Below are positions 9,627 to 63,978 of a stretch of 64,000 bases of DNA, piece after piece. Both the position numbers and the translations under genes were made by a program. Positions within the stretch are counted from its first letter, which is position 1. Each line of letters opens with the position of its first letter. The stretch is from assembly GCA_021081985.1 (NCBI GenBank), contig GCA_021081985.1_3639.1, one strand, 5' to 3'. The notes under the pieces are model-generated. The model made no database searches and was not told the DNA's origin. It saw nothing but the letters and a program-made list of their open reading frames with translations. Origin of the DNA: a phage.

Positions 9627-9702
9627 GGCCCCTTAGCTCAGTGGTTAGAGCAGGTGACTCATAATCGCTTGGTCGCTGGTTAAAGTCCAGCAGGGGCCAC
9701 CA
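9627..9702 (+). tRNA. tRNA-Met (CAU)
   Basis: Acceptor GGCCCCT/AGGGGCC, anticodon loop CTCATAA, T-arm GGTTAAAGTCC, encoded CCA. Confidence 0.8.
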
Positions 9703-9754
9703 AATGTGGCACACGAAATAAACTAGGTTTATTGTTTTCGGAGGAGAAAACTTA

Positions 9755-10078
9755 ATGGCTAAGAAACAGTCTGCTAAAAAGGTATCAGCTATCGAGGCGA
9801 TCAAGCAACCTTTTCAGTTTGAATCAAAATCCACGCAGACACATTCTGCACCGCACGATGTGCGTCTTGGTGGCAAAACGCAAACTGTAGCAGTTCTGAA
9901 AAAACGCAAAGATGAAGACGGTAATACTGAAATGTATTATGAATCTGTGTCTCGTGTCATTGGTGGTGAAGTGATTTCTGCTTCCTATCGTATCCGTACT
10001 GGGAAAACAAAGCGTGAACGAGAAGTGAAACAGAAAACAAGCACTCCTGTAGGAAACGTTAAGAAAACTAAAAAATAA
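9755..10078 (+). CDS. hypothetical Lys-rich basic protein
   Basis: 107 aa ORF directly after tRNA-Met. Confidence 0.4.
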   Translation: MAKKQSAKKVSAIEAIKQPFQFESKSTQTHSAPHDVRLGGKTQTVAVLKKRKDEDGNTEMYYESVSRVIGGEVISASYRIRTGKTKREREVKQKTSTPVGNVKKTKK

Positions 10079-10154
10079 TTTACTGACGAGAGTGCCACCG
10101 TGAGCCAGCGTCATTAAACAAAGGGAATCACGGACATTCAGGAGGGTTGAGATT

Positions 10155-10346
10155 ATGATAGGATCTTTGCTTAAGATTGCAAGCGATGTAACAACAACGG
10201 CTGTTGAAGTGACTGCTGCGGTAACAACTCCGTTTGTTGATTTAGCATCAGATGCTATAGCAGCAGCAGACGAGATGATTTTGTCACCGACATCTGATCT
10301 TGTCCAAGATCTTTGTGATTCTATAAAAGATGCTGTAAAAGATTAA
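10155..10346 (+). CDS. hypothetical small acidic protein
   Basis: 63 aa, rich in Asp/Glu/Ala/Thr. Confidence 0.35.
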   Translation: MIGSLLKIASDVTTTAVEVTAAVTTPFVDLASDAIAAADEMILSPTSDLVQDLCDSIKDAVKD

Positions 10347-10354
10347 AATTTTTC

Positions 10355-10383
10355 TTGACATAGTTTTTGTTTTTCTGTATAGT
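10355..10383 (+). promoter_or_regulatory. sigma70-like promoter
   Basis: TTGACA, 17 nt, TATAGT. Confidence 0.55.
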
Positions 10384-10419
10384 TACTTTATCAAAGCTAA
10401 TTTACATAGGAGAGATTGA

Positions 10420-11067
10420 ATGTCTACTAAGATTTCCGTAACTCGTGCACTTGCTTCTATCTCTAAGATTGAAGATAAGATCAATAAGCGCATTTATAAC
10501 CTTGAATGTATTAAGATTGCAAAAGGAACTGAGAATAATTGTAAGATTCCTGGTTATATCGGCTCTGTTGATGATTTTAAGAAATCTGCGATCAACGACT
10601 ATCAAAGTCTGCAAGACCTCTTGGCAGTTCGCGATGAACTGAAGGCAAAAATTGTCAAGTCTAATGCTGAGACAATTGTCAAAATTGGTAAGGTGTCTAT
10701 GACAGTTGCTGAGGCAATCGAACGCAAACGGACGATTTGCTTTAAACAAGAGTTGTTAAACAAACTTTGTGCACAGCGTGCTTCTGCACAGCTTCTTCTG
10801 GCAAAAGAAGAAAAATCTCTGGAAGATAAACTTGAAAATGCCAGAGCGCCATATATCCAACGTGATAAAGCGCCAGATGCAGAGCAGATTAAGACTGTGG
10901 AAGCTCCCATTCGAATGATGAACACACCATCGGTTGTGGATCCTCTTGAACTGGCTTCTAAGATTCGTTCTCTTGAAGAAGAGATTGAAGATTTCTTGTC
11001 TAACGTTGATTTTGCGTTGTCTGAGTCAAACGCTAAGACAGAAATTGAGATTGAGCACTCTCTCTAA
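10420..11067 (+). CDS. hypothetical coiled-coil protein
   Basis: 215 aa, charged and helix-rich. Confidence 0.5.
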   Translation: MSTKISVTRALASISKIEDKINKRIYNLECIKIAKGTENNCKIPGYIGSVDDFKKSAINDYQSLQDLLAVRDELKAKIVKSNAETIVKIGKVSMTVAEAIERKRTICFKQELLNKLCAQRASAQLLLAKEEKSLEDKLENARAPYIQRDKAPDAEQIKTVEAPIRMMNTPSVVDPLELASKIRSLEEEIEDFLSNVDFALSESNAKTEIEIEHSL

Positions 11068-11432
11068 AAGGCTCTGATAATATCATTATCGTTCCTTTGT
11101 TTTGAAATTTAAAACATTGCTTTTGATTAACGAAGTTTACATCATCTTGCCTCCTGGGGATTGGAGGTTAAATATTCCCCACCATGTATCGTATATGTAT
11201 GAGGATAATACAGAACATAGATGCAGCGAGGCACACGAAGATGCTTTGTTGTTTCCACTAAGTAAAAGTTCATACAATAAAGGTCAATGGTTAAATGTGA
11301 AAGATGAAACTTGAAAGTTGACTCTTGAAAGATAAAATTTCGTTTATCATCTGAAATCCTTGACACAGGTTATGGCTCACAAGATATGGTCTGTAAAGCC
11401 TCAAGGCTGTTAATCGGAAGCAATGTCTTATT

Positions 11433-11507
11433 GCTCGTATAGCTCAACGGTAGAGCACCTGCCTTGTAAGCAGGGGGTTGCAGGTTCGAAACCTGCTGCG
11501 AGCACCA
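11433..11507 (+). tRNA. tRNA-Thr (UGU)
   Basis: Acceptor GCTCGTA/TGCGAGC, D-arm GCTC..GAGC, anticodon loop CTTGTAA, T-arm GCAGGTTCGAAACCTGC, CCA. Confidence 0.8.
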
Positions 11508-11509
11508 AT

Positions 11510-11606
11510 GCTGGGTAAGCCCTTTGGCAAGGGCGAGGATTTATAATCCTGAAAATAGACGGGCTAGCCGTTGAATACATAGGTGGTTCGATTCCATCAC
11601 CCAGCC
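11510..11606 (+). ncRNA. non-canonical tRNA-like RNA
   Basis: tRNA-type acceptor (GCTGGGT/ACCCAGC), D-arm and T-arm (GGTGGTTCGATTCCATC), but the anticodon position is a closed hairpin AGGATT-tat-AATCCT followed by a second tight hairpin; about 97 nt, no CCA. Confidence 0.4.
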
Positions 11607-11807
11607 ACAAGTTTGTTTTATAGTGTATTAGCTTATATTATTCGATATAAATGCCTGATCAGCATTTGTTGTGAATGAGGCATACAATGCGTGAGAAAGC
11701 TATCGGTGCGCAACGTTGATTTCAAACGTAGTCATGCTCGTAGAGCACCAACTGTGGAAGTTGGAGGGTGGTTGAGTAACCATACACTATAAAGCATTCT
11801 TTAAAAT

Positions 11808-11892
11808 GGGCGGTGTCCCCACACAAGTCTTCTAAACTTGTACTTAAAAAGTGGGAAGGAAGTGAGAGGTTCGATTCCTCCACCGTCTACCA
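11808..11892 (+). ncRNA. non-canonical tRNA-like RNA
   Basis: 3' end TTCGATTCC...ACCGTCTACCA with a pairing 5' segment GGGCGGT, no D-arm, internal hairpin ACAAGT-cttctaa-ACTTGT. Confidence 0.3.
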
Positions 11893-11968
11893 GATTAACC
11901 CCAACTTGAGAATCGTCAGCGCGGCTCGTAAGACCCACTCTATAGGTTCTCTACCTGGGGTGCTTATT

Positions 11969-12045
11969 GCACGGTTGCCGGAATTTGGTTACGGGTCTGT
12001 CTGCAAAACGGATATATGTCGGTTCAAGTCCGACACCGTGCTCCA
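11969..12045 (+). tRNA. tRNA-Cys (GCA)
   Basis: Acceptor GCACGGT/ACCGTGC, anticodon arm TCTGT-CTGCAAA-ACGGA, T-arm GTCGGTTCAAGTCCGAC, CCA; D-stem imperfect. Confidence 0.65.
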
Positions 12046-12082
12046 AACTTTCAATTTCTTGGCAAATATGTTAAAATACCAC

Positions 12083-12111
12083 TTGACAGATATGTTTTTA
12101 TTTGATAATAT
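12083..12111 (+). promoter_or_regulatory. sigma70-like promoter
   Basis: TTGACA, 17 nt, TAATAT, followed by RBS and ATG at 12132. Confidence 0.6.
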
Positions 12112-12131
12112 CATTAAGTGGGGTTTTTAAA

Positions 12132-12479
12132 ATGGCTACTAAGCAGCTTACAAAACGTAGAAGAGGAAAAGGTCGTCCTCTGAAAGAGGAATCTAATGCA
12201 ATTCAGTTAGAGAAAAATATCCTAGATTTGAAAACGAATCTGATTGCAATGATTCCTGAAGCTCATCAGGTTCTTAGGGATTTGATGAAGAATGTGAATA
12301 CAAAAGACAATATCAGAGAAAATATCGCTCGTTATGTTATTGAGAAAGGTGAGCAGATGCTTTCTGATTACTTTGATGAGGAAAACGAAGAGTTACTCGA
12401 AAAAGATAACTCAGAAAAAGCGCCTATTAAGGCAGCCAAACCATTCTCGACGGATATTGTTCAATTCAAACAAGGTTAA
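12132..12479 (+). CDS. hypothetical protein with basic N-terminus
   Basis: ORF track 12102..12479; start moved to the ATG after the promoter and RBS (MATKQLTKRRRGKGRP...). Confidence 0.45.
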   Translation: MATKQLTKRRRGKGRPLKEESNAIQLEKNILDLKTNLIAMIPEAHQVLRDLMKNVNTKDNIRENIARYVIEKGEQMLSDYFDEENEELLEKDNSEKAPIKAAKPFSTDIVQFKQG

Positions 12480-12480
12480 T

Positions 12481-12570
12481 GTGTCGTTAGACCGTAGGGG
12501 TAGCGGGGGAGACTGTAAATCTCCTGTCTCGAAAGGGACTCGGGTAGTTCGACTCTATCACGGCACACCA
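12481..12570 (+). tRNA. tRNA-Tyr (GUA), type II
   Basis: Acceptor GTGTCGT/ACGGCAC, anticodon arm GGAGA-CTGTAAA-TCTCC, long variable arm, T-arm GGTAGTTCGACTCTATC, CCA. Confidence 0.75.
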
Positions 12571-12638
12571 ACTAAATCTGTACTGGCTTTGATGTGTGAC
12601 GATACCCTCCAATCGTGGTTGTTGGGTCAGTACAGTTT

Positions 12639-12714
12639 GGGAGTGTAGATCAGTTAGTAGATCGCTCGACCGATAATCGAGAGGACGTAGGGGCAGAGCC
12701 TACCACTCCCACCA
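12639..12714 (+). tRNA. tRNA-Ile (GAU)
   Basis: Acceptor GGGAGTG/CACTCCC, D-arm GATC..GATC, anticodon arm CTCGA-CCGATAA-TCGAG, CCA; position 33 is C and the T-loop is atypical. Confidence 0.6.
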
Positions 12715-12719
12715 AATAT

Positions 12720-12794
12720 GCATCCATAGTTTAATTGGGAAAACTACAGCCTTCCAAGCTGAAGTCGAGGGTTCGATGCCCTCTGGATGCTCCA
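12720..12794 (+). tRNA. tRNA-Gly (UCC)
   Basis: Acceptor GCATCCA/TGGATGC, anticodon loop CTTCCAA, T-arm GAGGGTTCGATGCCCTC, CCA. Confidence 0.75.
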
Positions 12795-12919
12795 GTTAAA
12801 AGATGTCAATGAAATCCGCTTGGGTCAACTGAAGACCGTAACAAATTCCATGGGGTTGTGTTTGCGGTCCAACCCTAGACATCTTCTATCTTTAGTAGAA
12901 GGCTTTAATACGGACGAGT

Positions 12920-13150
12920 ATGATGGTTTCTAAATTAATCATAACAAGGCATCATAATGCTAAAGAAATAGAGATTGTGAATGCTGCTGGCACTCTTGTG
13001 CTAAAAGTTGGTAAAGACTGTCCTTTTGAATTGTGCCAGAAGGAACTTTTAAGTTTGTGCGGTTTCAGGTTTAAACAGATTATCTTTGAAAATGCTTTTC
13101 AATATTCAGACTTAAACCAGTACATTATATCTAGGCTTGATCCTGCATGA
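12920..13150 (+). CDS. hypothetical small protein
   Basis: 76 aa ORF, 4-nt overlap with the next gene. Confidence 0.35.
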   Translation: MMVSKLIITRHHNAKEIEIVNAAGTLVLKVGKDCPFELCQKELLSLCGFRFKQIIFENAFQYSDLNQYIISRLDPA

Positions 13151-13704
13151 GATACTTGAAATATTTATCTTGGATCCTGTTAGCACCTCTTGATCCAATT
13201 ATGTCGGCTCTCTGTGTTATTCTGGCTCCTTTTGTTGTTCCGTTCTATAATGAGAAGACAGGGCATCTACCCTATATTTTCAGGTGGATGGAAACATATG
13301 ATAATCCTATAGACGGTGACAGAGGACACATAGAGAGATGGGAAGAAGTCCGTAAAATAGGAAGTTTTGGTGTTTACCTACAACGAGTTGCTTGGTTGTG
13401 GAGAAATAAAGCCTACAATTTTTCCTATCACGTACTTGGACGTGAAATCGCATCTGTGACAAAGTGGAAAGGAAACATCCATGTAAGCTCTGATGTGGAG
13501 GATAATCAACAAGGCTATTTGTTGATGTGGAATGACAATGCGTGGGGTGTATTCGCGTTTGTCCCGTCTTTTAGATTGTTTGGAAAACAATTTTACTGGC
13601 GAATTTATGTCGGTTGGAAACTGAAGAGTGTGGTTCCTGAAGACAGAGCTTTTTCAAGAGAGAGGGTGATGTTGGCATTTTTCATAAGTCCTTTCCGAAA
13701 ATAG
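13147..13704 (+). CDS. hypothetical membrane protein
   Basis: 185 aa, hydrophobic N-terminal segment LSWILLAPLDPIMSALCVILAPFVVPF. Confidence 0.45.
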   Translation: MRYLKYLSWILLAPLDPIMSALCVILAPFVVPFYNEKTGHLPYIFRWMETYDNPIDGDRGHIERWEEVRKIGSFGVYLQRVAWLWRNKAYNFSYHVLGREIASVTKWKGNIHVSSDVEDNQQGYLLMWNDNAWGVFAFVPSFRLFGKQFYWRIYVGWKLKSVVPEDRAFSRERVMLAFFISPFRK

Positions 13705-13710
13705 TTTTTA

Positions 13711-13792
13711 ATGAGAGTAGCGTAACTTCACTGGGTGAAGGCTGGCCTCCAAAACCAGTGACTAAGAGGTTCGATTCCTCACTCTCGTGCCA
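13711..13792 (+). tRNA. tRNA-like, possibly tRNA-Trp (CCA)
   Basis: Acceptor ATGAGAG/CTCTCGT, loop CTCCAAA, T-arm GAGGTTCGATTCCTC, CCA; D-region is over-long and non-canonical. Confidence 0.4.
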
Positions 13793-13793
13793 A

Positions 13794-13869
13794 AGGGGAT
13801 TAGCATAGTGGCCTAATGCAACGGGCTTTGACCCCGTGATCGGTTGTTCGAATCAACCATCCCCTGCCA
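13794..13869 (+). tRNA. tRNA-Gln (UUG)
   Basis: Acceptor AGGGGAT/ATCCCCT, D-arm GCAT..ATGC, anticodon arm ACGGG-CTTTGAC-CCCGT, T-arm GGTTGTTCGAATCAACC, CCA. Confidence 0.8.
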
Positions 13870-13878
13870 AGTTAAAAC

Positions 13879-13968
13879 GGAGAAGCAAATCGATTGGCGA
13901 CGAAACCACATTGGAAATGTGCTGACTGGTAAAACGGCTTGAGAGTTCGATTCTCTCCTTCTCCACCA
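13879..13968 (+). tRNA. tRNA-Ser (GGA), type II
   Basis: Acceptor GGAGAAG/CTTCTCC, anticodon loop TTGGAAA, long variable arm, T-arm GAGAGTTCGATTCTCTC, CCA. Confidence 0.7.
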
Positions 13969-13982
13969 GTTTTTAAGGATTT

Positions 13983-14726
13983 ATGTATGCACTCTCCCCA
14001 AGAAAAAAAAATGGAAAACAGATATTTAATTTGTTGAAAAGCGGAAAAGGCTTCTCAAACCCGCTTCAATCAGGTCTTTCTCTGGTTGGTGGTAAAGTAA
14101 GTAGTCTATCTTCTTTATCTTCCTCTATTTCTTCGGTAACTAACCCAGCTATAAAGGCTCAATTAGCTGCCGCAGGTTTGACAACTGGCGTTTTATCAAA
14201 TTTTACTTCGTCTCTTGGTTCTGTTACAAGCACGACAAAAACGCTTGTTGATTATGGTCAGAAATCTGTTGAAGAGTTCTCCCAAAGAATGCACGCAGCG
14301 AGTAATTATATGAGTACTCTGAGCAGAATGGGAGAAAAGACAAGTTGTTCAATATTTAGTGACGTTATGTCTGTAGCCACTGATTTAGGTAAGAAAGCTA
14401 TGGATGCCGTTAATTCCGCGATGGATGCGGTGAACGATGTTATGTCTCAATTGCAAGATGCAATAAATAAGGGTTTGAATACAATATCTAGTTTGGCGAG
14501 TAAAGCTGTCTCAGCGATAAACAAAGGGATCCAGAAAATGTCTGAGTATGCTAGCCAAGTGACAAAGATGATTGAAGATGAAGCAAAGAAGTTGGCAGAC
14601 TACTTAAAGACAAGTGCTGAAGGATTTCTCGCAGATATCCTACCTGATTGGTTTAACGATTCTTGTAAATCTGGTATAGTTGACCAGATTGCTACACCAG
14701 AGATGAAAGAAGTTCTTAAAAAGTAA
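13983..14726 (+). CDS. hypothetical protein with Ser/Thr-rich N-terminus and amphipathic helical repeats
   Basis: 247 aa; repeated AMDAVN/SAINKG-type helices. Confidence 0.5.
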   Translation: MYALSPRKKNGKQIFNLLKSGKGFSNPLQSGLSLVGGKVSSLSSLSSSISSVTNPAIKAQLAAAGLTTGVLSNFTSSLGSVTSTTKTLVDYGQKSVEEFSQRMHAASNYMSTLSRMGEKTSCSIFSDVMSVATDLGKKAMDAVNSAMDAVNDVMSQLQDAINKGLNTISSLASKAVSAINKGIQKMSEYASQVTKMIEDEAKKLADYLKTSAEGFLADILPDWFNDSCKSGIVDQIATPEMKEVLKK

Positions 14727-14728
14727 TT

Positions 14729-14822
14729 GGAAGATTAACCCTAATTTGGTAAGGGGTCTCCCTGCTAAGGAGATAGTAACCCAGAAATGGGTGTGCCAGT
14801 TCAAGTCTGGCATCTTCCTCCA
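14729..14822 (+). tRNA. tRNA-Ser (GCU), type II
   Basis: Acceptor GGAAGAT/ATCTTCC, anticodon arm TCTCC-CTGCTAA-GGAGA, long variable arm, T-arm GCCAGTTCAAGTCTGGC, CCA. Confidence 0.75.
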
Positions 14823-14901
14823 CTGTATGTCAAGGCTCAGATTTCTTCGGACCTGGGCGTTCGCCTTTGTTGGGTGTATATTCTCGGCAGAGGCTATCTT
14901 T

Positions 14902-14990
14902 GGAGGCTGGGGTGCATGGTGCACAAGCTGGTTTGAACCCAGTCCCGCTGTAGAGATATGGTGACAGTTCGATTCTGTCAGCCTCCTCCA
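14902..14990 (+). tRNA. tRNA-Ser (UGA), type II
   Basis: Acceptor GGAGGCT/AGCCTCC, anticodon arm GCTGG-TTTGAAC-CCAGT, long variable arm, T-arm GACAGTTCGATTCTGTC, CCA. Confidence 0.7.
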
Positions 14991-15213
14991 AGTTATCTTT
15001 AATGTAGCTTGTTTAGTTGCTTGGTGTGATTTTTCGGTGGATGGCTGCAACCATCTTATCGATACCCCAGAGCAGTCCGCTCTTTACTGGCGTAAGCCAA
15101 ACACTTATGATGGTCATGTAATCGTAATCTATCATTAGTGTGCTCTCCCTGGAGAGCTGTTGCGTATAGCTAATTATTGTGTGAGTAATTAGCTATTTTA
15201 AAGATAATTTGAC

Positions 15214-15290
15214 GGATCTGTAGCCAAATGGTTTAAGGCACTCGACTTTTAATCGAGAGATTGTTGGTTCGAATCCAACCAGATCCACCA
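15214..15290 (+). tRNA. tRNA-Lys (UUU)
   Basis: Acceptor GGATCTG/CAGATCC, anticodon arm CTCGA-CTTTTAA-TCGAG, T-arm GTTGGTTCGAATCCAAC, CCA. Confidence 0.85.
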
Positions 15291-15299
15291 AAATATTCA

Positions 15300-15390
15300 G
15301 GTTCTTTGACCGAGTGGTCGATGGTGACGGCCTGTTAAGCCGTTGGGAGGAATCTCCCCACCGAAGGTTCGAATCCTTCAGGAACCGCCA
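15300..15390 (+). tRNA. type II tRNA with GUU anticodon (nominally Asn)
   Basis: Acceptor GGTTCTT/AGGAACC, anticodon arm ACGGC-CTGTTAA-GCCGT, 19-nt variable arm with hairpin GGGAG/CTCCC, T-arm GAAGGTTCGAATCCTTC, CCA. Confidence 0.55.
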
Positions 15391-15474
15391 ATTCTTGACT
15401 TAATCAAGTCACAGATATCACCTAGCCAGCGATACCAGTTAGTAGATTCTGGGACAATTAAAATCTACATTTCT

Positions 15475-15552
15475 CTGTCCGTAGCGCAGCTTGGGTAGCG
15501 CGGGTCACTTGGGATGATCAGGTCGTTGGTTCAAATCCAACCGGACAGACCA
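15475..15552 (+). tRNA. tRNA-Pro (UGG)
   Basis: Acceptor CTGTCCG/CGGACAG, D-arm GCGC..GCGC, anticodon arm GGTCA-CTTGGGA-TGATC, T-arm GTTGGTTCAAATCCAAC, CCA. Confidence 0.8.
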
Positions 15553-15594
15553 ATAAACATATACATATCAAAGCAGAAATGTACAGAGGATACC

Positions 15595-15786
15595 ATGTTA
15601 ACAGTTAAAGTCGTATCTCCAAATGATGAACAAATTTTTTGTGGGAAAATTGTTGGGTATTGTGCTCATCAAAAGTCTATAGCTATTTCAGGTATTGACC
15701 AAAAAGTGTTTTTGTCTGAGGATCAGACCGCTTATGTGATCAATGCCAATGGAAAAACTATTTCTGTGTATCGTGGAAAACCGTAA
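15595..15786 (+). CDS. hypothetical small protein
   Basis: ORF track 15514..15786 begins inside tRNA-Pro; internal Met (MLTVKVV...) taken as start. Confidence 0.3.
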   Translation: MLTVKVVSPNDEQIFCGKIVGYCAHQKSIAISGIDQKVFLSEDQTAYVINANGKTISVYRGKP

Positions 15787-15800
15787 CTCTTAATATAAAT

Positions 15801-15877
15801 GGGCGATTGATGGAATTGGTATACATGTCAGGCTTAGAACCTGAATTTTGGGGGTTCGAGTCCCTCATCGCCTACCA
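15801..15877 (+). tRNA. type I tRNA with UAG anticodon (nominally Leu)
   Basis: Acceptor GGGCGAT/ATCGCCT, anticodon arm TCAGG-CTTAGAA-CCTGA, 5-nt variable loop, T-arm GGGGGTTCGAGTCCCTC, CCA. Confidence 0.55.
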
Positions 15878-15882
15878 ATTAT

Positions 15883-15958
15883 GTGACGGTAACTCAGTTG
15901 GTAGAGTGCCTTGCTGAAGACTAGGTGGTCACAGGTTCGAATCCTGTCCGTCACACCA
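15883..15958 (+). tRNA. tRNA-Phe (GAA)
   Basis: Acceptor GTGACGG/CCGTCAC, D-arm ACTC..GAGT, anticodon loop CTGAAGA, T-arm ACAGGTTCGAATCCTGT, CCA. Confidence 0.75.
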
Positions 15959-15973
15959 AACAGGAAATAGATT

Positions 15974-16204
15974 ATGCGAAGAAAATTGAAGAGTGCATAT
16001 ATCCAAAAAATAGAGACAGTTAGAAAATTTTGTGCTGGGTGGCCTCTTATTCTACTTATTGCCGATTCTAGGTATACTACTCAAGATGTGAAGAACTACA
16101 AGAAAGTAGATAAGTATTGTCGGACAAAGAAAGGAAGACTTGATGGTACTTATGAGATCCATTTTGGTCATCCACCTAGAAGGATTTCTCTTGGTAATAA
16201 ATGA
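15974..16204 (+). CDS. hypothetical small protein
   Basis: 76 aa ORF between tRNAs. Confidence 0.3.
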   Translation: MRRKLKSAYIQKIETVRKFCAGWPLILLIADSRYTTQDVKNYKKVDKYCRTKKGRLDGTYEIHFGHPPRRISLGNK

Positions 16205-16208
16205 ACAT

Positions 16209-16284
16209 TGCGAGTTTGAAGTCTGGTGACTTCGCTGGTCTCATAAGCCAGTCCAGATTGGTTCGATCCCAATACTCGCAACCA
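16209..16284 (+). tRNA. tRNA-Met (CAU), second copy
   Basis: Acceptor TGCGAGT/ACTCGCA, D-arm GAAG..CTTC, anticodon arm CTGGT-CTCATAA-GCCAG, T-arm ATTGGTTCGATCCCAAT, CCA. Confidence 0.75.
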
Positions 16285-18631: not shown

Positions 18632-19978
18632 TTGAGTAAAGTATTTGGACCTGCCAGTCCTAAACAAAAAATGATTTTGGAGAGTAAAGCCCAAATTCTA
18701 ATAATTGGCGGGGCCGCCGGGTGTTTGTCTAAAGACCACGAGGTGTTGACACCATCTGGCTGGATTAAGATATCAGAATGGTCAGGACAGGACATTCTGC
18801 AATATGATAAAGCCACTGGGGAGGCTAAATTTATCCCTCCTTTAGAGTTTGTTAAACTCCCTTGTGAAAAACTTACAAGAATAGAAGGTAATGGTATTTG
18901 TCAAGAGCTATCTGACGAACATACTGTGATTTATAAACCAGACTATAAATCACAGCCAAGAACACTTTCTTTTTCTGAAGTGGCAGAAAGACATAACAAC
19001 TCTGTTAAAAAAGGTTGGACAGGTAAGTTCATAACTACATTTAACTATGATGGGCCTGGGATAGACATGACAGAAGGGGAATTAAGGCTTCAGGTTGCTG
19101 TCATGGCTGATGGGAGAGTTGTTAAAGAAGGGAAAGATAATTATACACAGATGCGCTTTGCTAAAAAGCGTAAATATGACCGCTTAATCGAACTTTGTAA
19201 AAAGTTTGGATTAAGATATGAAGATAGAGGATCAAAACCCAGTGAAAGATATACCACTGGGGAACAGTACGAGGTCATTGTATGGCCTAAATATCCTGAT
19301 AAAAAATTTACAGAGAAATACTATCAGTGTTCAAATGAACAACTGGAGATAATACTTGATGAGATTTTTCATTGGGATGGTTCTTTTTGTAAGCCATATG
19401 GCGGTAAAACACATAATAGCTTTACAGGTAGATATTTTACTGCTCATAAGACGAACGCTGATTTTGTTCAGTTTATAGGATCTTCTCTTGGTTATAATAC
19501 CACCATAAGCCATGATACAAGAAGTGGAAAGGACAGTTATACTGTTAATATTATGGCTAGAGGAAAAGGATTAAGGTCACTGGCTAATAAAGACAGAAAA
19601 GCTGAGTTTAAAGAGTTTATACCTACGGATGGGTTTAAATACTGCTTTGTAACACAAACAGGTTTCTTTGTTACCAGACTAGAAGATTGTGTGGTTGTCA
19701 CTGGGAATAGTGGAAAATCATATCTCCTACAATTGATGCCGCTTGCTTATGTCGATGACCCGCAGACAGCATGTATAATGTTTCGTAGGACAACACCTCA
19801 ATTGACAGGTGCAGGTGGACTTTTTGATACAGCGAAAAGTATTTATTTGCAACTCGATAAGGAATGGAAGCCGAAGTTCAGGGAGAAAGCTCTGGAAGCA
19901 ATTTTCCCATCTGGGGCAAAGGTGTTGTGGAGACACATGGAGTATGAGAATAACAAATTAGATCATCAGGGTGAATAG
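18632..19978 (+). CDS. terL: terminase large subunit, 5' part (N-extein, intein, C-extein segment)
   Basis: TTG start with RBS GGAGG; Walker A split as IIGGAAG | intein | SGKSYLL; translation stops at 19978 where the putative intron begins. Confidence 0.75.
   Translation: MSKVFGPASPKQKMILESKAQILIIGGAAGCLSKDHEVLTPSGWIKISEWSGQDILQYDKATGEAKFIPPLEFVKLPCEKLTRIEGNGICQELSDEHTVIYKPDYKSQPRTLSFSEVAERHNNSVKKGWTGKFITTFNYDGPGIDMTEGELRLQVAVMADGRVVKEGKDNYTQMRFAKKRKYDRLIELCKKFGLRYEDRGSKPSERYTTGEQYEVIVWPKYPDKKFTEKYYQCSNEQLEIILDEIFHWDGSFCKPYGGKTHNSFTGRYFTAHKTNADFVQFIGSSLGYNTTISHDTRSGKDSYTVNIMARGKGLRSLANKDRKAEFKEFIPTDGFKYCFVTQTGFFVTRLEDCVVVTGNSGKSYLLQLMPLAYVDDPQTACIMFRRTTPQLTGAGGLFDTAKSIYLQLDKEWKPKFREKALEAIFPSGAKVLWRHMEYENNKLDHQGE
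18722..19708 (+). mobile_element. intein in terminase P-loop (329 aa), with LAGLIDADG-like endonuclease motifs
   Basis: Begins CLSKDHEVLT (block A-like Cys1), ends VVVTGN followed by Ser+1; internal LQVAVMADGRV and LDEIFHWDGS; flanking residues reconstitute GGAAGSGKS. Confidence 0.7.
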
Positions 19979-21162
19979 CTTGCCCTTCGTGCCTATAACG
20001 GTGGAACTCCCTATGGGAAAATACCGTGCCACAGAATATGGAAATATAAAATCTGGGTGTAACGACTATCTCCGATGAGTGTAGGAGAGTAGAATCACAA
20101 GCGATTGGTGATCCAAACGGCACGCCAAGGATGGAAGATATAGTCTGTTCCACATGGAAACATGTGGCGGGTGTTTTAGCACACCGCCTCAGTGTAGCGA
20201 ACTGAGGGGACAATAAGTTGCAGTATACCTTTATAGGTTTTGATGAGGGTTGGTATTAGCTCTCTTTAAACCTCCCTAATTGTCGGGGAAACCTTTATTG
20301 TTTACATAACCAAGCAAATGTGGTAACATGTTTGTGGCCTACACTAACTATGTAGGGTATGGTAATATCATGTAAAATTAGGTAATCCGCAGCGAAGCAT
20401 CCCTATGGGATGAACGTTCAACGACTATCGCTTACGGGCGTTAGGGCCAAGCGGTGAGGGAAACCTCCAGTCTTTCAGACTGCCGAAATGGGAGGATATT
20501 TGCGTAATAATATTAAAAAATGTGTTGACTGCCATAGAGAACTTCCTCTTGATAAATTTTTTCTTTCATCAAAAAGTAGTGATGGATATTCTGGAGCTTG
20601 TAAAGAATGCTACATGTATTATAGACTTAACAACTCCAGAAAGAATAAGGATATGATTAAGAAAGAGGATGCTGCCATGTTTATACAAGATTTGGTATCA
20701 TCTGGTGAACTTTTCGAATGCAAAACTTGCCGTAAGAAGTTTTTAGCTGATAATTTTTATACTAAGAGAGATTATGGTAAAGTGTATCTTGCAACAAATA
20801 GATGTAAAAGATGTGAAAAGTTTTACCAAATAGAGAGAAAGTTTGGCATCTCTGAGGAATATTACTTTTCAATGTTGGAAAGGCAGGGGTTTAAGTGCGA
20901 GATATGTAAAATACCTTTGGAAGATTATAAAAATCAAGGGTATAGAGATTTTTTCTCCGTAGATCATGACCATAAGACAGGGAAGATTAGAGGTTTGTTA
21001 TGCGATAAGTGTAACAGGGCTTTGGGATTTTTCGGAGAAAATGAGGAAACACTTTTAAATGCCGCAGAATATATACGCAAATATAAGATATAGTCTGGTC
21101 TGCATGGTGACATGCAGCAGCACGTAGTGGTGCGGGATAAGAGTAGCGATCTTATCTGAACA
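19979..21162 (+). mobile_element. putative group I intron carrying an HNH homing endonuclease ORF
   Basis: Non-coding structured flanks around the HNH ORF; 38-nt core (20383-20420) and 3' segment (21114-21162) nearly identical to sequences in the DNA polymerase interruption; terminase frame reopens right after an in-frame TGA at about 21160. Boundaries approximate. Confidence 0.5.
20488..21093 (+). CDS. HNH homing endonuclease
   Basis: 201 aa; Cys-rich N-terminus and HNH motif SVDHDHKTGKIRGLLCDKCN. Confidence 0.8.
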   Translation: MGGYLRNNIKKCVDCHRELPLDKFFLSSKSSDGYSGACKECYMYYRLNNSRKNKDMIKKEDAAMFIQDLVSSGELFECKTCRKKFLADNFYTKRDYGKVYLATNRCKRCEKFYQIERKFGISEEYYFSMLERQGFKCEICKIPLEDYKNQGYRDFFSVDHDHKTGKIRGLLCDKCNRALGFFGENEETLLNAAEYIRKYKI

Positions 21163-21240
21163 AAAACGACACAATTCACATGGTCACAGATAGATTATCT
21201 GATATCTCGTCTACGTTCAAACTCTAAATATCCGAGCAGG

Positions 21241-22281
21241 ATGGTTATCTCTTGTAACCCTGATCCAGATCATAAGATTAAAGAGTTGATTTCTTGGTAT
21301 TTAGACGATGAGGGGTATCCTATACCTGAACGTGACGGGGTGATTAGATGGTTTATAAGACGTGACGGGGAGTTTATCTGGGGTGAATCAGAGCAAGAAT
21401 TAATTGAAAAGTATTGGGATGGCAAGGATGAGAAAAGAAAGCCTAAACCACTTTCATTTTCCTTCATTTCCGCAACAATATTCGATAATCCTCCCATGCT
21501 GGAGAATAACCCAGATTATCTAGCATTCCTTGAAGGTCTTCCAGAGGTAGAAAAAGCCCAGTTATTGCATGGAAACTGGAACGCAAGACCTGAAGGGGCA
21601 AACTATTTCCAGAGATCTTATTTAAAAGAGGTTCCCTGCTTACCTCTCGGTGTTGTATCTGTTCGTCCGTATGATAAAGCAGGTACAGAAAGAACATCTG
21701 GAAACAGATATCCTGACTTTACAGCATCTGTTAAGGTAAGTAAAGACAATGATGGTTTTTACTACTTGTCTGGTGATTATTGTCCTGAATTTTTTGATGA
21801 TGGTAGATATTCGACTCAAACGCAGGGAAGATTCTGTAAAAAAGCTGGGGAACGTGATGTTATCATTAAGAAACAGGCTTATTTTGATGGTGATGATGTC
21901 ACCATAATTTTCAGTGTTGACCCAGGACAAGCAGGAATAAGTGAATTTTTAACAAGCTCCCGTGAACTAATAGCGGAAGGGTTTACAGTAGAAAAAGATC
22001 CTACACCAAGCAATAAATCAAAATTAACACGATTCACACCGTTTGCAAAACTTGCTCAAGCAGGTATGGTGAGAATAGTTCGTGATAGTTTTGATCCTAA
22101 AACTTATGAAGCCCTTATGACAGAGCTTGAAAAGTTCAATGGGGAAAGGAGTACTACGACAAGAAAAGACGATTGGGTCGACGCCATTTCTTCTGGGATA
22201 AATTATCTTGAAAAAGAAGAAATAGTCAAACCTGTTGTTATTCCAAAAATTGTAGCTCCTACCTTGTATAAAAGAATATAA
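21241..22281 (+). CDS. terL: terminase large subunit, 3' part
   Basis: 346 aa from first ATG; reading frame is open upstream to about 21163, so the true exon probably starts there without its own start codon. Confidence 0.7.
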   Translation: MVISCNPDPDHKIKELISWYLDDEGYPIPERDGVIRWFIRRDGEFIWGESEQELIEKYWDGKDEKRKPKPLSFSFISATIFDNPPMLENNPDYLAFLEGLPEVEKAQLLHGNWNARPEGANYFQRSYLKEVPCLPLGVVSVRPYDKAGTERTSGNRYPDFTASVKVSKDNDGFYYLSGDYCPEFFDDGRYSTQTQGRFCKKAGERDVIIKKQAYFDGDDVTIIFSVDPGQAGISEFLTSSRELIAEGFTVEKDPTPSNKSKLTRFTPFAKLAQAGMVRIVRDSFDPKTYEALMTELEKFNGERSTTTRKDDWVDAISSGINYLEKEEIVKPVVIPKIVAPTLYKRI

Positions 22282-63184: not shown

Positions 63185-63444
63185 AGAGAGTTCGTTACGC
63201 TCTCCCGCACCATTACGTGCATAGCCACAAGATTTCTCCTGTGGGTCGGACTATTTCATCCTCCTAATGTTAAGGAGGCCTCCCGTTTCGACCGCACTTG
63301 CTGGCCTACTCTACTCGCTTTCACATTACTAGTGTGCTTTCGATAGTCTCTGAACGTTCATCCCGTAGGGATGCTTCGCTGCGGATTAGCATATTGAACT
63401 TTTACCACTTTTACGTATAAAAGTCAACTTAGCCTTCCCGTCAA
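63185..63444 (-). mobile_element. putative ORF-less group I intron in DNA polymerase gene
   Basis: About 260 nt non-coding insert between the motif B and motif C exons; contains a 38-nt core (63351-63388) nearly identical to the terminase intron. Boundaries approximate. Confidence 0.5.
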
Positions 63445-63978
63445 TTAAAGAGGTTTTCGACATGCATTACTGCATGAAGCCACAATTTGTTTATGGTAGT
63501 AGATAACCCTCCTGACACCTTGGTCGTACCATCCCCGTTTTACCAATTCCCAATGGAACAGGACTCCCATGAGGTCAAACAATGAAGCACCACCGTTTTG
63601 TTGGTAAGCATTCAGCAGAGAATGTTTAGAACGAGTCCAAATTTTACGCCCGTCCATGCCTGGAATATAGCGTCTGCCATTTGCCTCCCAGAATTTTTCC
63701 AACCACTCTCTACGCATTTTCAACCCGAAGTTACTATCCCAGAATGCGTCTATTACAGCCTGTGCTCTATTAAGGGGGATACCCAGCATTGCGGCTATCT
63801 TAGGAGCTTGTGCTCCATACATAATTCCATACGTAACCCCCTTTCCTCCAGAGCGTGTTACCTCCTTTCCTGCTGCTATTGTGTATGCTCTTGCGTTTCG
63901 TTCATGGGCATCCTCTTCCATCATGATACGTAAATACTCACCACCGTCAAACTCAAAAGCCCCTGCCGCTGCAATCAT
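63445..63978 (-). CDS. family A DNA polymerase, upstream part containing motif B (ORF-track fragment; N-terminal region beyond first ATG and window edge not assessed)
   Basis: TRSGGKGVTYGIMYGAQAPK matches Pol A motif B (R..K..YG..YG). Confidence 0.7.
   Translation of the reverse strand: MIAAAGAFEFDGGEYLRIMMEEDAHERNARAYTIAAGKEVTRSGGKGVTYGIMYGAQAPKIAAMLGIPLNRAQAVIDAFWDSNFGLKMRREWLEKFWEANGRRYIPGMDGRKIWTRSKHSLLNAYQQNGGASLFDLMGVLFHWELVKRGWYDQGVRRVIYYHKQIVASCSNACRKPL

Follow-up and report, generated by a model that had tools for sequence, protein, structure and literature searches.

A gap in the large terminase gene of an rV5-like phage probably holds two tandem group I introns on either side of a Walker B mini-exon

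The stretch of phage DNA analyzed here (GenBank assembly GCA_021081985.1, contig GCA_021081985.1_3639.1; 64,000 nucleotides (nt), hereafter the window) encodes on its plus strand a large terminase subunit (TerL) of the T4 type, and its nearest phage records are Vequintavirinae coliphages. The TerL gene is interrupted by a gap. The open reading frame (ORF) at 18632-19978 terminates with a TAG at 19976-19978, and the TerL frame is open again from 21160, directly after an in-frame TGA (21157-21159), with its first start codon, an ATG, at 21241. An earlier note on this DNA had described this stop and reopening correctly and had explained the gap by one group I intron with an HNH endonuclease. The group I nature and the HNH ORF held up, but the count did not: natural alleles and two separate cores speak for two introns. 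With a probability of roughly 0.88, the gap consists of two complete, independent group I introns separated by a mini-exon of 33 nt, and we count two introns rather than one because natural alleles fix the boundaries of each of them separately. The features of the locus are the following.

18632..19972, plus strand: TerL exon 1 (from the ORF list), with a TTG start; contains the intein at 18722-19708 and ends in ...CAG GGT
18722..19708, plus strand: intein of 329 amino acids (aa), inserted in the Walker A P-loop of TerL (GGAAG, then CLSKD...VVTGN, then SGKS)
19973..20217, plus strand: group I intron 1, 245 nt, IA2-like, no ORF, no P2; identified by RF00028 match, empty site and covariation
20218..20250, plus strand: mini-exon, 33 nt, 11 codons, TTGCAGTATACCTTTATAGGTTTTGATGAGGGT, encoding LQYTFIGFDEG, the Walker B strand and the catalytic D-E
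20251..21168, plus strand: group I intron 2, 918 nt, IA2-like, no P2, ORF in the P8 loop; identified by RF00028 match, empty site and covariation
20488..21093, plus strand: ORF of 201 aa in intron 2 for a putative homing endonuclease of the Endonuclease VII/HNH type (ββα-Me), containing DHDHKTG...CDKCN
21169..22281, plus strand: TerL exon 3, TQFTWSQIDYL... up to the stop codon; tblastn match to aa 130-499

When both introns and the intein were removed in silico, a continuous TerL product of 499 aa was obtained that matches Terminase_6N and Terminase_6C. This joined product aligned with the uninterrupted TerL of Klebsiella phage BIS47 as one tblastn piece (aa 1-499, 82% identity), and the same one-piece alignment over 1-499 was found in 10 of 14 IMG/VR relatives. 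Exon 1 by itself is mapped by tblastn to aa 1-30 and 31-118. Precise excision therefore restores a conserved continuous frame, and intron-less natural alleles exist at both sites: the phage record Av-05 reads CATCAGGGT joined directly to TTGCAGTAT, which is the exact empty site of intron 1, and TH18 reads GATGAGGGA joined directly to ACACAATTC, the exact empty site of intron 2. In-frame stop codons lie two and three codons into the introns (GAA TAG in intron 1 and TGG TAT TAG in intron 2, respectively). The 24 codons upstream of the ATG at 21241 (TQFTWSQIDYLISRLRSNSKYPSR) are conserved in BIS47 and rV5. The element had been placed at 19979-21240 before, and its span has to be revised to 19973-20217 and 20251-21168, the 72 nt at 21169-21240 being exon.

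The 33-nt coding exon inside the gap, at 20218-20250, had been missed in the earlier note. This mini-exon is colinear with uninterrupted TerLs, in which the homologues read LQYTF(I/V)GFDEG, and between the window and the IMG/VR contig L008 it shows five synonymous and no non-synonymous codon changes. Its sequence indicates that the mini-exon is translated. When the window is compared to TH18, 4 of 33 nt differ in the mini-exon but 2 of 245 nt in intron 1.

Secondary structures were assigned to both introns. The earlier note had proposed a search with group I intron models and a P1-P9 fold prediction; the search gave significant RF00028 matches for both introns, below the Rfam gathering score, and the fold extended from P1 to P9.2 with covariation in each intron. 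The helices of intron 1 are:

P1 19968-19972/19982-19986; P3 19988-19993/20119-20124; P4 19998-20003/20022-20027; P5 20008-20011/20015-20018
P6 20028-20035/20052-20058; P7 20064-20068/20141-20145; P7.1 20069-20073/20084-20088; P7.2 20094-20098/20108-20112
P8 20125-20127/20132-20134; P9 20150-20156/20161-20167; P9.1 20168-20174/20181-20186; P9.2 20187-20193/20201-20207

In its P1, exon AGGGU pairs with GCCCU, and every copy keeps the U•G pair at the 5' splice site; the last nucleotide is a terminal G (omega-G, G20217) at a boundary that is fixed by the empty-site allele, and P9 is capped by a GNRA loop. The RF00028 match covers 19917-20167 with 34.5 bits (E 9.6e-7 in a scan of 19900-21300 and 4.5e-5 in the 64-kb window). 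Minimum free energy (MFE) folds of the window copy and of the L008 copy, made independently, showed the same architecture. In an alignment of four sequences, all 58 tested pairs were standard in every sequence, a count that excludes P5 and four inner P9.2 pairs, as MAFFT put small indels in the wrong place in P5 and the loop of P9.2. Fifteen pairs were changed on both sides, compared to 3.7 ± 1.8 in shuffles (0 of 500 as high) and 0-1 in slid controls, and the compensatory pairs include two in P7.1 and four in P7.2. The MFE z-score was -3.14. Weak blastn matches to the intron 1 core were obtained in T4-like phages.

The helices of intron 2 are:

P1 20245-20250/20259-20264; P3 20271-20276/20490-20495; P4 20281-20286/20386-20391; P5 and its extension about 20291-20383
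P6 20392-20419; P7 20423-20427/21091-21095; P7.1/P7.2 region 20428-20483; P8 20496-20504/21076-21084
P9 21100-21106/21111-21117; P9.1 21120-21123/21130-21133; P9.2 21136-21142/21150-21156

Here, GAGGGU pairs with GCUCUC in P1, again with an invariant U•G at the 5' splice site in all copies, and the omega-G is G21168, where the empty-site allele fixes the boundary. The RF00028 match comes in two pieces because the 606-nt ORF splits it: 20223-20578 (40 bits; E 2.1e-8 in the scan of 19900-21300 and 9.8e-7 in the 64-kb window) and 20907-21117 (29 bits; E 4.4e-5 in the scan of 19900-21300). When seven intron 2 cores, with the P8 loop excised, were analyzed by RNAalifold with no prior structure, P1, P3, P4, the extended P5, P6, P8, P9 and P9.2 were recovered, with 86 pairs, 28 of them compensatory; with the P7 pseudoknot added there were 91 pairs and 98.5% of cells were paired. 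The 28 both-side changes compare to 10.0 ± 2.4 in shuffles (0 of 500 as high) and to at most 5 in slid controls. Two or three hairpins occupy the P7.1/P7.2 position and covary in part. The z-score of the core was -5.03 and, together with that of intron 1, bears out the structured non-coding flanks described before.

Both introns thus contain a P3-P8 core with the P3/P7 pseudoknot topology that is supported by covariation; P7 itself is invariant, equals the consensus GACUA/UAGUC and carries no covariation support of its own. The P2 expected by the RF00028 model is absent in both, and both add P7.1/P7.2 and P9.x helices. Extra P7.1/P7.2 helices between P7 and P3' mark subgroup IA2 in the Michel & Westhof classification. 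By this criterion, rather than by a formal classifier, both introns are IA2-like. The P9.2 loop reads GUAGCGA in intron 1 (20194-20200) as well as in intron 2 (21143-21149), CUAGCGA in rV5 and UUAGCGA in CB7, and the stems under this shared loop differ completely; the conservation of the loop suggests a conserved tertiary contact. Intron 1 was also considered as a recent duplicate of intron 2, and this found no specific support: their global identity of 71-74% is not above that between intron 2 and the unrelated DNA polymerase intron of the window (about 71%). The latter is another group I intron without an ORF, on the minus strand at 63228-63502, inside motif C of a family A DNA polymerase gene (between ...VIYYH and DEIQVQV...), and its RF00028 match (78.7 bits, E 2.5e-18) is well above the Rfam threshold.

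The ORF in intron 2 contains the DHDHKTG...CDKCN motif that had been noticed before, and it matches Pfam Endonuclease_7 (PF02945) with E 4.7e-20 and 71.7 bits (cutoff 23.6), PHROG endonuclease VII families with E 8.7e-33 and, in the PDB, Hpy99I (E 3.3e-6) as well as T4 endonuclease VII. CxxC DNA-binding modules are present at its N-terminus, and it aligns over its full length with an ORF of phiWec193. The true start is likely the TTG at 20500, which lies 4 nt after a GGAGG; in the phiWec193 homologue the aligned codon is the starting ATG. This gene had been described as free-standing, in contrast to its actual position in the P8 loop of intron 2: the GGAGG, its Shine-Dalgarno sequence, is the P3' strand of the intron, both strands of P8 (20496-20504 and 21076-21084) are part of the coding sequence, and the stop codon TAG (21091-21093) falls in P7' (AUAGUC). 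The ORF is absent from intron 2 of Av-05, rV5 and the metagenome contig L023, the last being 94-99% identical to the window. Family, loop location and variable presence point to a putative homing endonuclease.

In the relatives, the insertion sites, numbered along the 499-aa TerL, are occupied as follows.

Site A, aa 30/31, intein: window, TH18, Av-05, L023
Site B, aa 118/119, intron 1: window, TH18 group, L008, L023, L024
Site C', aa 127/128, intron: CB7
Site C, aa 129/130, intron 2: window, rV5 and many rV5-like phages, Av-05, L008, L023
Site D, aa 233/234, intron with a different HNH: TH18 (L001, 3463-4444), rV5 (L003, 1364-2342), phiWec193, L019

Site D is empty in the window and in JES2013. 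In this subfamily, TerL can thus be interrupted by an intein at one position, in Walker A, and by introns at four positions or more (B, C', C and D), three of them distinct sites within 13 codons around Walker B. That an intein and an intron sharing one essential gene would make it a hotspot for selfish elements, as the earlier note had it, is supported by these data and extended. The 329-aa intein is missing at exactly aa 30/31 in uninterrupted TerLs. It begins with Cys, ends with Asn and is followed by Ser, its penultimate residue being Gly and not His. Along its whole length it matches an intein-bearing PhoH-like family in PHROG (E 7e-27); no significant match was found in Pfam or PDB. A shorter intein (about 241 aa) occupies the same site in L023, L024 and Av-05, and none is present in L008.

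No record in the phage collection covered both introns together. A further example of the tandem layout is L008: both introns are present, the ORF of its intron 2 is homologous, and the mini-exon between the introns encodes the same amino acids. It has no intein, its exon 1 is about 70% identical to that of the window, and its intron 2 was recovered without the 3' part, which lies on the other end of the contig. The order of intron 1, mini-exon and intron 2 recurs in L023, where intron 2 is 349 nt long and has no ORF, and site C introns with or without an ORF occur in rV5-like phages. The base at -1 of site C is T in every allele bearing intron 2 and A in the empty alleles checked, which fits the U•G requirement and possibly target-site immunity. 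When the window is compared to L023, the 5' two-thirds of intron 2, from 20251 to 20487 in the window, are 79.4% identical, the last 75 nt 98.7% and the flanks more than 99%, so that divergence peaks around site C between phages that are otherwise about 99% identical. Intron 2 of L008 mixes an rV5-like P1-P5 region with a P7.1/P7.2 region like that of the window. Such mosaic copies point to recombination among intron variants, and the pattern fits, as indirect evidence, repeated gene conversion at site C, as would be expected for homing.

The GenBank records of TH18, 18-1-2, 19-1-2 and 24-2-1 annotate three separate coding sequences (CDSs) named 'terminase large subunit', with intron 1 unrecognized. 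The terminase annotation of Av-05 (KM190144.1; L002 and L005) is fragmented, and its TerL codons 118-233 lie on the opposite strand beside the record origin as an intron-less inverted copy, which probably results from faulty assembly of a terminase region that was mixed or permuted. Av-05 was set aside as a reference for the ORF-less intron 2 since its record origin is unreliable, and L023 and rV5 were used instead.

We propose, with the same probability as given above for the two introns, the following explanation of the whole locus. The TerL gene of this rV5-like (Vequintavirinae) phage would be transcribed as one pre-mRNA with two self-splicing IA2-like introns 33 nt apart. Each intron would pair with the last nucleotides of the exon upstream to form a P1 of its own, where U•G marks the 5' splice site, and its terminal G would define the 3' splice site. 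With both introns out, the mini-exon and its 11 Walker B codons would link exon 1 to exon 3 in a continuous TerL frame, and the Walker A intein would then be removed at the protein level. During co-infection the intron 2 endonuclease presumably cuts intron-less terminase alleles near site C and thereby initiates gene conversion. Its ribosome-binding site being the P3' strand, the folded ribozyme should limit translation of the ORF.

Several points weigh against this explanation. Splicing of both terminase introns in this phage is something we infer from sequence and structure, and some phage group I introns need cellular factors or do not splice in vitro (PMC11878797); one CB7 intron failed to splice (PMC7344957). 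The RF00028 matches of both introns (34.5 and 40 bits) stay below the gathering score of 50 bits, which is a database criterion and not a biological definition, and an Rfam scan at this threshold detected no intron in the terminase gap, so that the permissive E-value mode was needed. Within intron 1, P1, P3 and P7 are invariant and give no covariation signal, the covariation rests essentially on the single diverged lineage of L008, and P8 has just 3 bp. A P10 pairing of the internal guide sequence region with the 3' exon was sought by eye, and none was convincing for intron 1.

Other explanations were weighed as well. We give almost no credence to a single large group I intron across the whole gap, as first assumed. 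There is one ORF in one contiguous frame interruption and the Rfam matches overlap the region, but each of the two complete cores has its own P1, P3-P9.2 and terminal G, natural alleles with precise boundaries carry either element alone, and a single intron would delete the conserved Walker B codons, which show only synonymous change. It is also conceivable that nothing is spliced and that the endonuclease gene splits the terminase into separate polypeptides that assemble after translation. Aeh1 NrdA with mobE is reportedly such a case, with a split gene and separately translated polypeptides that assemble post-translationally. Non-splicing split genes in phages are discussed in PMC7344957, and both the ATG at 21241 in exon 3 and the three CDSs annotated in the GenBank relatives would suit such a gene. 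However, without splicing the mini-exon frame yields a peptide of only 13 aa, on which alone Walker B would reside, and a product of exon 3 would be missing 24 residues that are conserved; separate polypeptides are therefore strongly disfavoured. Moreover, covariation supports a group I fold in the intervening sequences, the ORF lies within P8 instead of being free-standing, and intron 1 is devoid of any ORF. Taken together, this makes the split terminase very improbable. Even less probable, by a little, is a role of the HNH protein as an accessory to DNA packaging instead of homing, similar to HNH proteins of the HK97 gp74 type, which act together with terminase. Its gene lies inside the terminase gene and some packaging machines are known to contain HNH proteins (Kala et al., 2014, cited in PMC7344957), but it is dispensable, as L023 and rV5 keep the intron without it, and its Endonuclease_7 family with N-terminal CxxC modules, its location in an intron loop and the gene-conversion-like divergence flanking its site all argue against such a role.

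A further possibility supplements the splicing of both introns rather than replacing it: an exon-skipped mRNA joining exon 1 to exon 3 might be formed in addition, with a Walker B-less, ATPase-dead TerL as by-product or regulator. Both 5' splice sites end in AGGGU, the guide of intron 1 can pair over 6 bp with site C and that of intron 2 over 5 bp with site B, and the skipped product would stay in frame, minus Walker B. Tandem group I introns are on record as causing exon skipping in Twort orf142 and in SIOphi (PMC11878797), the latter in the terminase gene according to the Results of that paper and in the polymerase gene according to its Discussion. A dead terminase would be costly, though, and strict purifying selection on the mini-exon shows that it is the full product that matters; we consider exon skipping unlikely. 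Slightly more speculative, and in our view unlikely too, is the idea that the tandem pair acts as a unit rather than as two independent introns, in which skipping of the Walker B exon yields an ATPase-dead TerL that modulates packaging. Separately, and with the same low probability, the ORF-less intron 1, located 33 nt from the cut site of the intron 2 endonuclease, may persist by hitch-hiking and be co-converted whenever intron 2 homes.

Just upstream of the terminase region, the plus strand at 9627-16279 contains a cluster of 13 tRNA genes as well as weak sub-threshold matches to a tmRNA (13879-13968, 21 bits) and a tRNA-Sec (16210-16279, 37.4 bits).

If two introns and an intein are spliced out as proposed, the gene model has to be corrected: TerL would be one protein made from three exons and by protein splicing of an intein, in contrast to the three CDSs of the GenBank relatives. 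An unusually dense cluster of self-splicing elements would then sit in one ATPase active site, with the intein in Walker A and introns directly before and after the Walker B strand, in line with the accepted view that the codons targeted by homing elements are those that are most conserved and least mutable. Every combination is represented among natural alleles: intron 1, intron 2 and the ORF are each present or absent, and the intein is long or short. These alleles therefore offer a convenient coliphage system for homing, co-conversion and possible exon skipping. No new mechanism is implied.

This kind of element is well known, as terminase introns have been published in the subfamily and other phages combine tandem introns with small exons. 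The first group I intron reported in a phage TerL gene was that of Lactobacillus phage LL-H (Mikkonen and Alatossava, 1995, cited in PMC3606486), by its description a single intron in an unrelated siphovirus. Closest to the window is rV5, of the same subfamily, with introns in the same gene, at sites C and D, that have already been published (Kropinski et al., 2013, PMC3606486); its TerL is annotated as a three-piece join (RefSeq rv5_gp065). The first rV5 intron, exactly at site C (aa 129/130), lacks an ORF and is homologous to intron 2 with about 78% identity, and many rV5-like phages have a version of the site C intron with an Endonuclease VII ORF (about 69% identity). In contrast to the window, where site D (aa 233/234) is empty, rV5 has its second intron there, which carries a different HNH. 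Its introns are about 104 codons apart instead of 11, and it has neither intron 1 at site B nor the intein. For the Pectobacterium phage CB7, another member of Vequintavirinae, in vivo splicing of an HNH-bearing TerL intron was shown by reverse transcription PCR and sequencing (Buttimer et al., 2020, PMC7344957). Like intron 2, the CB7 intron lies within the Walker B motif and has an HNH ORF, and its 3' domain (P7'-P9-P9.2, ending in ...UGAACAAAAAUG) resembles that of intron 2. However, it is a single intron (KY514263.1; L025, 385-1350) mapped between VD and EG (aa 127/128), 6 nt upstream of site C, and its different HNH ORF is located in another part of the intron.

Several group I introns per gene are also known from Bastillevirinae, where TerL and polymerase genes contain two or three of them (PMC11878797), and a small exon between introns as well as exon skipping were described for Bastillevirinae and for Twort orf142 (Landthaler and Shub, 1999; PMC11878797). 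Compared by the text of these papers, they share with the window the multiple introns and small internal exons, whereas the phages and their hosts (Firmicutes) are unrelated and the genes and sites are different. The IA2 introns of T4 td, nrdB and nrdD (sunY) have P7.1/P7.2 between P7 and P3' and P9.1/P9.2 extensions, their ORFs are looped out of a peripheral helix, and the translation signals of their endonucleases are sequestered in intron structure. The introns of the window resemble them in the phage IA2-type helices and, in the case of intron 2, in the looped-out ORF and the probably sequestered translation signals, and differ in the host gene, in the endonuclease, which in T4 is of the GIY-YIG or other types, and in the location of the ORF in P8. 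Compared to all of these systems, what is new is the recognition that the gap would be made up of two introns, the insertion site B, which is unannotated in the GenBank relatives, and a 33-nt Walker B mini-exon beside an intein-bearing exon.

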